Part shown: in pieces, positions 5,116 through 9,561 of the stretch
How the letters are laid out: each line of letters begins with the position of its first letter
How positions within the stretch are numbered: position 1 is the first letter of the stretch
Source: a virus
Lineage: Duplodnaviria; Heunggongvirae; Uroviricota; Caudoviricetes
DNA: 10,884 nucleotides
Reading direction: 5' to 3' (one strand)
Virus record (IMG/VR): IMGVR_UViG_2695420485_000001
Position numbers and translations under genes: made by a program
Notes under the pieces: generated by a model
What the model saw: the letters and a program-made list of their open reading frames with translations, nothing else
Database searches by the model: none
What the model was told of the DNA's origin: nothing

Positions 5116-5556
5116 ATGAAAAAACTAACCTTTGAAATTCGATCTCCAGCACATCAGCAGAACGCTATTCACGCAGTACAGCAAATCCTTCCAGACCCAA
5201 CCAAACCAATCGTAGTAACCATTCAGGAACGCAACCGCAGCTTAGACCAGAATCGAAAGCTTTGGGCTTGCCTTGGTGACGTCTCTCGTCAGGTTGAATG
5301 GCATGGTCGCTGGCTGGATGCAGAAAGCTGGAAGTGTGTGTTTACCGCAGCATTAAAGCAGCAGGATGTTGTTCCTAACCTTGCCGGGAATGGCTTTGTG
5401 GTAATAGGCCAGTCAACCAGCAGGATGCGTGTAAGCGAATTTGCGGAGCTATTAGAGCTTATACAGGCATTCGGTACAGAGCGTGGCGTTAAGTGGTCAG
5501 ACGAAGCGCGACTGGCTCTGGAATGGAAAGCGCGATGGGGAGACAGGGCGGCATGA
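5116..5556 (+). CDS. ninB: NinB (Orf recombination-mediator family), 146 aa
   Basis: [31 protein letters not shown]..., near-identical to lambda NinB as recalled. The track ORF begins at an upstream TTG (5098); the ATG at 5116 follows a GGGAGAGGGAAG Shine-Dalgarno. Confidence 0.93.
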
Positions 5557-5735
5557 GACGACAGCGACGAAGTTTCACCGACATCATCTGCGAAAACTGC
5601 AAATACCTTCCAACGAAACGCTCCAGAAATAAACGCAAGCCAATCCCAAAAGAATCTGACGTAAAAACCTTCAACTACACGGCTCACCTGTGGGATATCC
5701 GGTGGCTAAGACATCGTGCGAGGAAAACAAGGTGA
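5553..5735 (+). CDS. ninE: Small Cys-containing basic nin protein, 60 aa ([60 protein letters not shown]); best fits NinE by size, NinD not excluded
   Basis: ATG at 5553 overlaps the ninB stop (ATGA). The 60-aa length matches lambda NinE rather than NinD (57 aa); the sequence is recalled from memory, not searched. Confidence 0.7.
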
Positions 5736-5765
5736 TTGACGCGATGATTTATTCGGGGCTATATT
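5736..5765 (+). promoter_or_regulatory. Strong sigma70-like promoter: TTGACG, 18-nt spacer, TATATT
   Basis: -35 at 5736-5741 and -10 at 5760-5765, immediately after the ninE stop, directed rightward toward the inserted module. Confidence 0.5.
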
Positions 5766-5771
5766 CCTCAC

Positions 5772-5848
5772 GCGCCAGCAAAATCTGGCGTCGGGATTAG
5801 CACCCCGGATATCGAAACGGTGCATAACCGCGCTGGCGGTTTTTTTAT
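5772..5848 (+). ncRNA. Candidate short terminated leader or sRNA (~75 nt) from the 5736-5765 promoter, ending at an intrinsic terminator
   Basis: Predicted start near 5772. Internal hairpins cgccag/ctggcg and cggg/cccg. Terminator stem aaccgc (5826-5831) / gcggtt (5836-5841) with loop gctg, followed by seven T. No ORF with a Shine-Dalgarno in the interval. Confidence 0.3.
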
Positions 5849-6010
5849 GCGCTAAGCACAGTCACATTCGCGATTTATGGCGGGCTGTGTGGGGGAGCCG
5901 AAAGGCTCGCCGGATGTTTCGACCGGTAGTGCTAACCCCGCACAGTTCGCCACCACGATGATTAGCACCTGACGGTGGCGAGGTAAAAATTATCGAAACG
6001 CGAGGTCATT

Positions 6011-6688
6011 ATGGCTGTTCAAATTTCTGTCGAAAACCTTTCCCCTGTTACCTATAACCAGATCCCCGTAATTACTACTGAACTGTTGGCTCACCTTTAC
6101 GGAACAAAAATCAAAAACATTTCTGATAACTTTCTGAACAACACGACGCGATTCATGCCCGGAAAGCATTACTTTAAAATTGAAAAAAACGAATTACGCG
6201 AGTTTAAGAACAGACCCGAAACAATCGGGTTAGTTGGTAAAAATGCCCGCGCCCTCATCCTCTGGACAGAACGCGGCGCAGCCCGTCACGCAAAAATGCT
6301 CGAAACCGATCAGGCGTGGGAAGTGTTCGAAAAACTGGAAGACTGCTATTTCAGCCAGTGCGAGAAAAATACTGGCAAACAAGAGAAGAAGCCCAACGGG
6401 CTTTCCGCAAAAGAAACAGACAGCCTTGTATGGCTGTGGGATTATGCCAACCGCTCACAGGCATTGTTCCGTGAGTTGTATCCCGCATTAAAACTGATTC
6501 AGTCTGGCTATTCCGGCATATGCTACGACTACGGTCATGAGTTCTCGTATGTTATTGGAATGGCGAGAGACGTTTTAATTAATCACACACGAGATGTTGA
6601 TATCAATGAGCCAGACGGACCAACGAACCTTCTGGCATGGGAAAGGCTTAAGAACAAAGAGTTGCCGCCTTCACTGCATCGCTACTGA
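6011..6688 (+). CDS. ORF6N (KilA-N-related) domain protein, 225 aa, with an unrecognised C-terminal domain
   Basis: N-terminal ~100 aa fit the ORF6N pattern ([33 protein letters not shown]...[34 protein letters not shown]). GAGGT Shine-Dalgarno 6 nt before the ATG. Followed by its own terminator. Confidence 0.7.
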
Positions 6689-6703
6689 CAATTGACAACT
6701 TAA

Positions 6704-6731
6704 CAAACCCAGCTTCGGCTGGGTTTTTTAT
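6704..6731 (+). terminator. Rho-independent terminator after the ORF6N gene
   Basis: aacccagc ttcg gctgggtt: 8-bp stem, tetraloop, then TTTTTTATT. Confidence 0.75.
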
Positions 6732-6756
6732 TGCTGAATTTTCAATGTGAGAGGAC

Positions 6757-7485
6757 ATGACAATGAATGAGCTGATAAATAGCAATGCCATCAAAATGAC
6801 AAGCATTGAAATCGCTGAGTTGGTGGGAAGTCGTCATGACAAGGTGAAACAATCCATTGAACGACTGGCTGTTCGAGGTGTGATCCGAAATCCCCCAATG
6901 GTGGTTTTCGAAAAAATCAATAACTTAGGATTACTTCGTGGCGTAGAGGCTTACGTTTTTGAGGGCGAACAAGGTAAGCGCGACAGCATTATTGTCGTTG
7001 CCCAGTTGTCGCCGGAATTCACCGCTCGCCTTGTTGACCGCTGGCGAGAACTCGAAGGGGCAACCGCGAAAATACCACAAACCTTTTCTGAGGCATTGCG
7101 CCTTGCGGCCGACCTTGAAGACCAGAAGGCTGAACTGGAGAAACAGCTTGCTCTCGCAGCACCTAAAGTTGAGTTTGCCGATCGAGTTGGCGAGGCCAGC
7201 GGAATTTTGATTGGAAACTTTGCAAAGGTTGTTGGTATTGGTCCAAACAAACTGTTTGCGTGGATGCGCGATCACAAAATCCTTATTGCTTCAGGTGCCC
7301 GGCGCAATGTGCCAATGCAGGAATATATGGATCGCGGCTATTTCACAGTGAAAGAAACAGCGGTCAATACAAATCACGGAATACAGATATCGTTCACCAC
7401 AAAAATCACCGGGCGTGGTCAACAGTGGCTGACAAGAAAGCTGCTAGATAACGGAATGCTTAAAGTAACAGGGGAGGCTGCTTAA
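6757..7485 (+). CDS. Rha-family phage regulatory protein with a KilA-C/ANT-like C-terminal domain (antirepressor or Roi-like), 242 aa
   Basis: N-terminus [30 protein letters not shown] fits the Rha winged-helix pattern; C-terminus [48 protein letters not shown] fits the ANT/KilA-C pattern. GAGAGGA Shine-Dalgarno upstream. Stop overlaps the ninG start (TAATG). Confidence 0.7.
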
Positions 7486-8090
7486 TGGCTAAACCAGCGC
7501 GAAGGAAATGCAAAATCTGTAAGGAATGGTTTCACCCGGCATTCTCAAATCAGTGGTGGTGCAGCCCGGAACACGGAACTAAATTAGCACTCGAACGACG
7601 AAATAAAGAACGCGAAAAGGCGGAAAAAACAGCAGAGAAGAAACGACGACGAGAGGAGCAGAAACAGAAAGATAAAATTAAGATTCGAAAACTCGCCTTA
7701 AAGCCCCGCAGTTACTGGATTAAACAAGCCCAACAAGCCGTAAACGCCTTCGTCAGAGAAAGAGACCGCGACTTACCATGTATCTCGTGCGGAACGCTCA
7801 CGTCTGCTCAGTGGGATGCCGGACATTACCGGACAACTGCTGCGGCACCTCAACTCCGATTTGATGAACGCAATATTCACAAGCAATGCGTGGTGTGCAA
7901 CCAGCACAAAAGCGGAAATCTCGTTCCGTATCGCGTCGAACTGATTAGCCGCATCGGGCAGGAAGCAGTAGAGGAAATCGAATCAAACCATAACCGCTAT
8001 CGCTGGACTGTCGAAGAGTGCAGGGCCATCAAGGCGGAGTATCAACAGAAACTTAAAAAACTGCGAAACAGCAGAAGTGAGGTTGCATGA
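7485..8090 (+). CDS. ninG: NinG (Rap recombination endonuclease), 201 aa
   Basis: [31 protein letters not shown]...CISCG...[11 protein letters not shown], near-identical to lambda NinG as recalled, with the Cys-rich motifs. Confidence 0.9.
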
Positions 8091-9327: not shown

Positions 9328-9402
9328 GGGTCAGTCGTATAAAGGTCATTACGGAAGGCTGTTAACCTTCTTATCGTGGTTCGAGTCCACGCTGTCCCGC
9401 CA
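9328..9402 (+). tRNA. tRNA-like gene, 75 nt, anticodon loop CUGUUAA (GUU, Asn-type); one U-U mismatch in the acceptor stem
   Basis: Manual cloverleaf: acceptor gggtcag/ctgtccc (6 of 7 paired), D-arm gtat-aaaggtca-ttac, anticodon stem gaagg/ccttc, T-arm cgtgg-ttcgagt-ccacg, discriminator G, encoded CCA. Confidence 0.55.
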
Positions 9403-9407
9403 AACAT

Positions 9408-9483
9408 GCTGGTTTAGCTCCAATGGTAGAGCAACTGACTTGTAATCATCAGGTCGCCAGTTCGATTCCGGTAGCCGGCACCA
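9408..9483 (+). tRNA. tRNA-Thr-like gene, 76 nt, anticodon UGU (loop CUUGUAA); weakened anticodon stem and one T-stem mismatch
   Basis: Resembles E. coli tRNA-Thr(UGU) as recalled (GAGCAACTGACTTGTAATCA...AGGTC...CCAGTTCGATTCCGGTAG...CACCA). Acceptor gctggtt/agccggc includes two G-U pairs. Only 3 of 5 anticodon-stem pairs form (tcatc instead of tcagt). Confidence 0.6.
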
Positions 9484-9486
9484 TAT

Positions 9487-9561
9487 GCGGGTACCGTATA
9501 ATGGCTATTACCTCAGCCTTCCAGTCTGATGATGCGGGTTCGATTCCCGCTACCCGCTCCA
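9487..9561 (+). tRNA. tRNA-like gene, 75 nt, anticodon loop CUUCCAG (UCC, Gly-type by manual fold); C at position 8 and a C-U mismatch closing the anticodon stem
   Basis: Perfect 7-bp acceptor gcgggta/tacccgc, D-arm gtat-aatggcta-ttac (same architecture as the first tRNA-like gene), T-arm gcggg-ttcgatt-cccgc, encoded CCA. Confidence 0.5.

Follow-up and report, generated by a model that had tools for sequence, protein, structure and literature searches.

A predicted immI-type antisense RNA module upstream of an antirepressor gene in the nin region of a Stx-phage-like prophage

The immI mechanism of phages P1 and P7 acts through an antisense RNA, c4 (Citron and Schuster 1990, as cited in PMC8198154; the 1990 work is also cited in PMC12197685). 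The GenBank record of P1 gives the order promoter P1c4, a1, b1, C4 RNA, a2 and b2, followed by icd and ant. In P1, the loop of the second C4 hairpin holds b′ (CACTAAC), and the single strand after this hairpin holds a′ (CTGTCAA). In prophage Gifsy-1, promoter PisrK gives rise to a short terminated RNA, IsrK, and to a read-through isrK-orf45-anrP transcript (Hershko-Shalev et al. 2016, PMC4825925). anrP was untranslated under basal conditions; IsrK supplied in trans increased its translation 139-fold, and IsrK-G28A failed to do so (PMC4825925). The compensatory pairs G28A/C162U and G31A/C159U defined a helix, and the authors proposed that IsrK remodels the read-through mRNA, switching on an upstream ORF that is coupled to anrP (PMC4825925). 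The product, AnrP, induces Gifsy-1 (PMC4825925). The same paper names P4 CI RNA, which acts via premature transcription termination, as a structural analogue (PMC4825925). In P22, the small RNA sar pairs at the ribosome-binding site of the message for a phage antirepressor and represses its translation (PMC12197685).

We analysed a stretch of DNA of 10.9 kb (the window), which is a mosaic lambdoid prophage, lambda-like in its left part and Stx-phage-like around positions 5736-6010 (the interval). Gene order around the interval is NinB, NinE, ORF6N/P22_AR_C protein, ANT/Rha "Roi", NinG, phosphatase, Q. The interval is very probably an antisense immunity module of the P1/P7 immI type, situated in the nin region of a lambdoid (Stx-phage-like) prophage. 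This reading is supported by matches to three Rfam families, all above the curated cut-offs and in the expected order and spacing. The search was performed at curated gathering thresholds and rerun with alignments; the original prediction, made from the letters of this DNA, had called for such a covariance search, and all three families matched inside the interval. The features of the locus are as follows.

5736-5765, + strand: sigma-70-type promoter (TTGACG at 5736-5741, 18-nt spacer, TATATT at 5760-5765)
5772-5846, + strand: IsrK-like / c4-a1b1 small RNA (Rfam isrK, RF01394, 76.6 bits, cut-off 50)
5759-5811: match to c4-a1b1 (RF03163, 50.6 bits, cut-off 46.7)
5772-5791: hairpin 1 of the IsrK-like RNA
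5792-5807: hairpin 2 of the IsrK-like RNA, with a1 inside its 8-nt loop
5795-5804, + strand: a1 target-mimic site, GATTAGCACC; its core TTAGCAC (5797-5803) is complementary to a′
5810-5819, + strand: b1 target-mimic site, TATCGAAACG; TCGAAACG (5812-5819) pairs with b′
5826-5847, + strand: intrinsic terminator of the IsrK-like RNA, AACCGCGCTGGCGGTT plus T7
5873-5957, + strand: C4 antisense RNA (RF01695, 75.1 bits, cut-off 45; full-length model match, 1-87)
5915-5922, + strand: b′, TGTTTCGA, in the loop of C4 hairpin 2; complementary to b1 and b2
5929-5935, + strand: a′, GTGCTAA, in a single-stranded internal loop of C4; complementary to a1 and a2
5960-5969, + strand: a2 site in the ant leader, GATTAGCACC, core TTAGCAC at 5962-5968; 3 nt past the C4 match
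5991-6000, + strand: b2 site, TATCGAAACG, core TCGAAACG at 5993-6000
6011-6688, + strand: ant, predicted antirepressor gene, 225 aa (Pfam ORF6N, 3.1e-20; P22_AR_C, 3.7e-25)
6705-6733, + strand: strong intrinsic terminator of the ant unit (9-bp stem, TTCG loop, T-run), directly past the ant stop codon

The locus was compared with the described systems and with other phages in a set of 18 loci, comprising the window, 16 diverse phage loci and the P1 immI region; the set includes P1, Gifsy-1, APSE, phiV10, and Klebsiella and Aeromonas phages. P1 and the window share the order of promoter, a1, b1, terminator-like hairpin, C4, a2, b2 and start codon. C4 folds alike in both, a hairpin loop presenting b′ and an internal single strand presenting a′. 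In both, a2 lies 3 nt past C4, b2 lies 10 nt before a start codon (that of icd in P1, that of ant at 6011 in the window), and the controlled function is an antirepressor. The b2 site of P1 overlaps GAGG and that of the window ends 1 nt before the Shine-Dalgarno sequence GAGG (6002-6005), a matching geometry. The recognition sequences are entirely different (a is TTGACAG and b is GTTAGTG in P1; TTAGCAC and TCGAAAC in the window). In P1, icd, the mediator of C4 control, lies between C4 and ant; the window has no icd-like gene, its b2 site is at the ribosome-binding site of ant itself, and the first ORF after b2 is ant. The lack of icd was counted against the immI reading, and it means that control would act directly on the ant ribosome-binding site. 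The antirepressors are also different (an ORF6N/P22_AR_C protein in the window, Ant1/2 in P1), as are the host elements: P1 is a plasmid prophage, whereas the window is a lambdoid prophage with a lambda-like cI, and its promoter is without a C1 operator. The module of the window is thus a relative of the P1 operon that lacks icd, and not a full copy of it.

Gifsy-1 resembles the window in being a lambdoid prophage, in the position of the promoter, and in having an IsrK homologue followed by a C4 homologue (the orf45/STnc1160 region in PMC4825925) and an antirepressor gene. Its a (TTGGCGT) and b (TCACCG) sequences both differ from those of the window. The module of the window lies between ninE and roi, upstream of Q, whereas that of Gifsy-1 is just downstream of Q; the antirepressor gene is followed by a plain terminator in the window and by the sRNA gene isrJ in Gifsy-1 (2073-2147 of the locus as retrieved). 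When Gifsy-1 was renumbered from the start homologous to 5772, the published positions fell on the stated bases (A107 of AUG, UG120-121). G28 and G31 then lay inside a1, and C159 and C162 lay inside a′. The published helix therefore corresponds to pairing of a1 with a′, which supports real pairing of an IsrK-type with a C4-type RNA, and "orf45" starts at the 5′ end of the C4 homologue. The P4 CI RNA, with seqA and seqC, is like the window in that a small RNA comes from the leader of its own operon and has complementary sites upstream and downstream; no match to a P4-family Rfam model was found at the interval. The window resembles P22 sar in the proposed repression of antirepressor translation at the ribosome-binding site, but its regulator is encoded on the same strand, upstream of the target, and would pair via two short loops.

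All coordinates and sequences given for 5736-6010 in the original prediction were verified by direct motif check. The promoter, described there as near-consensus, matched 10 of 12 consensus positions in a consensus scan. One promoter-like site was found in 5300-6500 and 0.9 was expected from shuffles; the match is not significant on its own, being no more than chance level. Hexamers resembling -35 and -10 elements occur at the equivalent position in most of the 18 loci (a clear -35 is absent from two), and the counterpart of 5736-5765 is annotated in the P1 record as the sigma-70 promoter P1c4. Transcription was predicted to start at ~5772. The published Gifsy-1 mutation numbering fits the bases when the start is the homologue of 5772, which supports this prediction. 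The ninE stop codon (TGA, 5733-5735) stands immediately before the -35 hexamer, so that the module starts right at the end of ninE.

The promoter and terminator had been predicted to yield a discrete small RNA of ~75 nt, and the Rfam match identifies this RNA as an IsrK homologue. The locus has the isrK/c4-a1b1 plan of two 5′ hairpins and an intrinsic terminator, with a promoter of its own, directly 5′ of C4. The b1 site is in a single-stranded linker ahead of the terminator. In the alignment fold, compensatory changes were present in all six pairs of hairpin 1, and hairpin 2 was conserved. The terminator, called strong in the original prediction, is present as a hairpin (5826-5841) with T7 behind it. 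Since C4 and ant further downstream lack a separate promoter, it is presumed to be leaky; in Gifsy-1, the homologous terminator was shown to be read through (PMC4825925). A leader reading through into the ORF6N gene, the other transcript foreseen in the original prediction, is likewise the arrangement shown experimentally in the Gifsy-1 homologue (PMC4825925). In Rfam, RF01394 carries the title "isrK Hfq binding RNA". The families isrK (RF01394, no clan) and c4-a1b1 (RF03163, clan CL00128) cover overlapping parts of one RNA, and each has matches in the window as well as in other loci; Rfam does not link isrK to the C4 clan.

The 85-nt RNA at 5873-5957 holds the complements of both repeats; it had been overlooked, and C4 had not been recognised as a unit. 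Its fold has an MFE of -48.6 kcal/mol (z = -6.2) and consists of a long closing stem that encloses a GAAA hairpin (5895-5908), a second hairpin with b′, and an internal single strand with a′. The GAAA hairpin, GAGCCGAAAGGCTC, had been noticed as an isolated element and is the first internal hairpin of C4. In the consensus from 16 sequences, 16 of 27 pairs showed double-sided changes that preserve pairing. By homology to the C4 annotated in P1 (744-820 in the numbering of the P1 locus as fetched), mature C4 is predicted to span about 5879-5954. The closing stem starts at G5879 and its 3′ strand ends in GCCACCA (5949-5955), as in P1, which is compatible with excision by RNase P. Hartmann et al. 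(1995, in the references of PMC11143913) are said to have found that C4 is excised by RNase P from a longer precursor, with a tRNA-like acceptor stem and 3′ CCA. A tRNA-like gene, suggested by the 3′ GCCACCA, was rejected: the motif is part of C4, and the only tRNAs located by ARAGORN are those at 9328-9402 and 9487-9561. When 5400-7600 was searched permissively against Rfam, nothing but sub-threshold chance matches came up beyond the three families.

The two ARAGORN tRNAs (tRNA-Asn, 9328-9402; tRNA-Gly, 9487-9561) belong to a group of three tRNA genes just 3′ of the Q gene (9328-9561). The third (9408-9480) was an Rfam match missed by ARAGORN; in the matching cluster of JLK-2012, a tRNA-Thr is annotated between tRNA-Asn and tRNA-Gly.

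A further complementarity involves the 3′ strand of the C4 closing stem. Positions 5946-5954 (TTCGCCACC) are complementary to 5974-5982 (GGTGGCGAG), between a2 and b2, and a covarying complement of 7-11 bp to the C4 3′ strand occurs at a matching offset past C4 (+14 to +27) in 16 of the 18 loci, for example GCTACCACC/GGTGGTAGC in YDC107. This hints that an unprocessed transcript could form an alternative hairpin (5946-5954 with 5974-5982), which would hold a2 in its loop and compete with the C4 fold.

The 5′ end of C4 also contains the start codon of a small ORF, on which a different model can be built. In a mechanism like that published for Gifsy-1, the IsrK-like RNA would open in trans the ribosome-binding site of the 31-aa ORF at 5877, which corresponds to orf45, and translational coupling would turn on an otherwise silent ant. 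This model was put forward for the homologous Gifsy-1 locus, where mutations of the orf45 start and stop codons supported it (PMC4825925), and every one of the 18 loci has the ATG conserved at the equivalent position of C4. However, the conserved ATGG is the base of the C4 closing stem, where conservation tracks RNA pairing, with compensatory changes, and the annotated 5′ end of mature P1 C4 falls between the T and the G of this ATG. The original prediction described the ORF from ATG 5877 as having no Shine-Dalgarno sequence; we agree, since none of the GGAG/AGGA type was seen in the preceding bases, CACATTCGCGATTT. The 45-aa ORF of Gifsy-1 overlaps anrP by 4 nt, whereas the ORF of the window stops at 5972, 38 nt short of the ant ATG. 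Across the loci its length ranges from 14 to 260 aa (14-15 aa in P1, PhiR12, Kp4865 and APSE), and in some it is in frame with the downstream gene. The variable length and the 38-nt gap speak against both a conserved peptide and translational coupling at the locus of the window. We therefore consider this model unlikely here.

The two repeats on which an immI-type module would depend had been pointed out in the original prediction, and both were recovered: GATTAGCACC starts at 5795 and 5960, and TATCGAAACG at 5810 and 5991. Each has two copies and occurs nowhere else in the window. Of 5000 dinucleotide shuffles of the interval, only 2 had two separate 10-nt direct repeats. GTGCTAA at 5929-5935, described as an inverted partial copy, is present and is the a′ of C4. 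The corresponding element for the second repeat had been overlooked; b′ GTTTCGA (5916-5922) is the reverse complement of its core. Thus a′ and b′ are each complementary to one upstream and one downstream site, as in the P1/P7 module. The duplex of b1 TCGAAACG with b′ comprises seven Watson-Crick pairs and one G-U pair. The a and b duplexes are short, with 7-8 bp each, and this was counted against the immI reading. Complementarity was scored on loops only, since RNAduplex on whole RNAs is uninformative, unfolding the C4 stem into long duplexes. Further C4 targets in the window were sought and rejected: TTAGCAC at 7584 and TCGAAAC at 6300 and 9681 correspond to about the chance frequency for 10.9 kb, and the two 7-mers never come together as a pair.

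In all 17 other loci, an isrK/c4-a1b1 element is followed 22-28 nt later by C4, and a start codon lies 48-58 nt past C4 in 17 of the 18. The recognition sequences are diverse, with 11 different a′ heptamers and 15 different b′ loops. The upstream RNA nevertheless has an exact complement of a′ at position 26 in 15 of the 18 loci, and one stands no more than 7 nt past C4 in 17 of them. Mean complementarity was 6.8 nt for cognate combinations, versus 3.05 nt for non-cognate ones. The recognition sequences thus change jointly in three complementary places, which identifies them as RNA-RNA pairing sites and not protein operators. VT2-Sakai, P27, phiV10 and Gifsy-1 have a common a site, TTGGCGT, and four different b sites. 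Specificity may accordingly be combinatorial, and partial cross-talk among co-resident prophages is conceivable from these sequences.

The same comparison bears on two simpler readings. The terminator at 5826-5847 could merely limit transcription into ant as a cis attenuator, with no trans-acting RNA. The layout of promoter, terminator and gene is compatible with this, but the conserved and highly structured C4 and the duplicated sites with their covariation would be unexplained, and IsrK was shown to act in trans in Gifsy-1 (PMC4825925); such an attenuator is very improbable. That the 10-mers are operators for a phage DNA-binding protein (CI, the ORF6N protein or Roi/Rha) controlling the promoter or the downstream gene is hardly credible, for although they are exact and statistically unusual and DNA-binding proteins are encoded next door, they are non-palindromic, all lie downstream of the transcription start, each has a complement within the structured C4 RNA, and from phage to phage their three copies covary against a background of varying flanking proteins, a hallmark of RNA-RNA pairing. 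The original prediction had left the choice between a regulatory RNA and an operator array, in either case not coding sequence. Its non-coding regulatory RNA was found, but the covariation of the repeats with C4 in the 18 loci speaks against its operator array. Because the repeats are RNA target sites, EMSA of the ORF6N and Rha proteins on them, as suggested there, is not a relevant test.

The protein encoded downstream of b2 is most likely an antirepressor, judging from its domains and its homology to AnrP: its N-terminal 124 aa are 87% identical to AnrP of Gifsy-1. In phage and RefSeq records with identical regions, the downstream gene is labelled "anti-repressor Ant". The terminator past ant makes the promoter, IsrK, C4 and ant a self-contained transcription unit between ninE and roi. 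In the Stx2a phage Stx2_EH0787, an sRNA-Xcc1 match (RF02221, 75.7 bits; 1677-1760 of the locus as retrieved) is located ~560 nt 3′ of C4, past a shortened ant-like ORF of 121 aa; a paper on APSE phages reported sRNA-Xcc1 beside an ORF6N gene (bioRxiv 10.1101/2020.03.17.996009).

For the immI-type module we propose the following mechanism. The sigma-70 promoter at 5736-5765 would initiate transcription near 5772. Many transcripts would end at 5826-5847, giving the ~75-nt IsrK-like RNA with a1 exposed in a hairpin loop and b1 in the linker. Read-through transcripts would run on through C4 (about 5879-5954), a very stable structured RNA, and extend into the ant mRNA. By analogy with P1, C4 is probably excised by RNase P, as the stem base at G5879 and the 3′ GCCACCA would fit. 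C4 would then use a′ (5929-5935) to bind a2 (5962-5968) and b′ (5915-5922) to bind b2 (5993-6000). Since b2 lies right against the Shine-Dalgarno sequence and start codon of ant, this pairing should block ribosome binding, and the ORF6N/P22_AR_C antirepressor would consequently be off in the lysogen. The IsrK-like RNA has exact copies of both target sites and so could bind and titrate C4. A higher ratio of IsrK to C4 would relieve the repression of ant and promote induction. The recognition sequences would serve as a specificity code that differs among phages. In this scheme, the sequences themselves establish the RNAs with their folds, complementarities and covariation, and the placement of the sites at the ribosome-binding site; C4 processing, the block on translation, the role of IsrK as a decoy and the activity of the antirepressor are carried over from the homologues. 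One published result does not fit a simple decoy model: in Gifsy-1, the a1 mutation G28A in cis raised basal anrP translation from 4 to 93 units (PMC4825925), whereas a pure decoy predicts lower expression.

The module as such is already known: its RNAs are in Rfam, its mechanism has been described for P1/P7, and the Gifsy-1 homologue has been dissected. APSE phage records annotate isrK, C4, a′ and b′ together, and the isrK and C4 annotation of APSE phages has been published (bioRxiv 10.1101/2020.03.17.996009). The public phage and RefSeq records examined over IsrK/C4 carry CDSs only, nothing, or a spurious "hypothetical protein" (e.g. PhiR12_2_star, vB_EcoS_P27); the sole exception among them is the APSE-8 record, in which both ncRNAs are annotated. 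The copy in the window, as read from its sequence, has recognition sequences of its own. No experimental study of this element in E. coli was found in the literature, and an EHEC Hfq-CRAC paper mentions neither IsrK nor antirepressors (PMC4104026). We give about even weight to the proposition that the Gifsy-1 and P1 models describe one mechanism, in which "orf45" would be C4 and not coding, IsrK would be the a1b1 anti-antisense decoy that titrates C4 off the antirepressor ribosome-binding site, and a and b would form a reassortable two-part address. No explicit statement in the literature that IsrK is a1b1 or that orf45 is C4 was found, and a 2025 review keeps IsrK and c4 as separate systems. 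Only this unifying reading, with IsrK as the a1b1 decoy and orf45 as C4, might be new.

The interval is 99-100% identical to the corresponding sequence of Stx phages JLK-2012, phi24B, Min27, YYZ-2008 and Stx2a_F451. The nin region is mosaic; JLK-2012 and VT2-Sakai have a dam methylase gene between ninB and ninE, which is not in the window. Related copies were found in 264 phage records and in 697 of 5426 complete E. coli genomes (13%), and the module is present in many Shiga-toxin phages, e.g. phi24B, Min27 and VT2-Sakai. Antirepressors can turn prophages on without the SOS response. If the a/b address is reassortable, co-resident prophages could cross-regulate each other's antirepressors. Being widespread in Stx phages and E. 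coli genomes, the module could plausibly contribute both to the induction of Stx phages and to prophage cross-talk.
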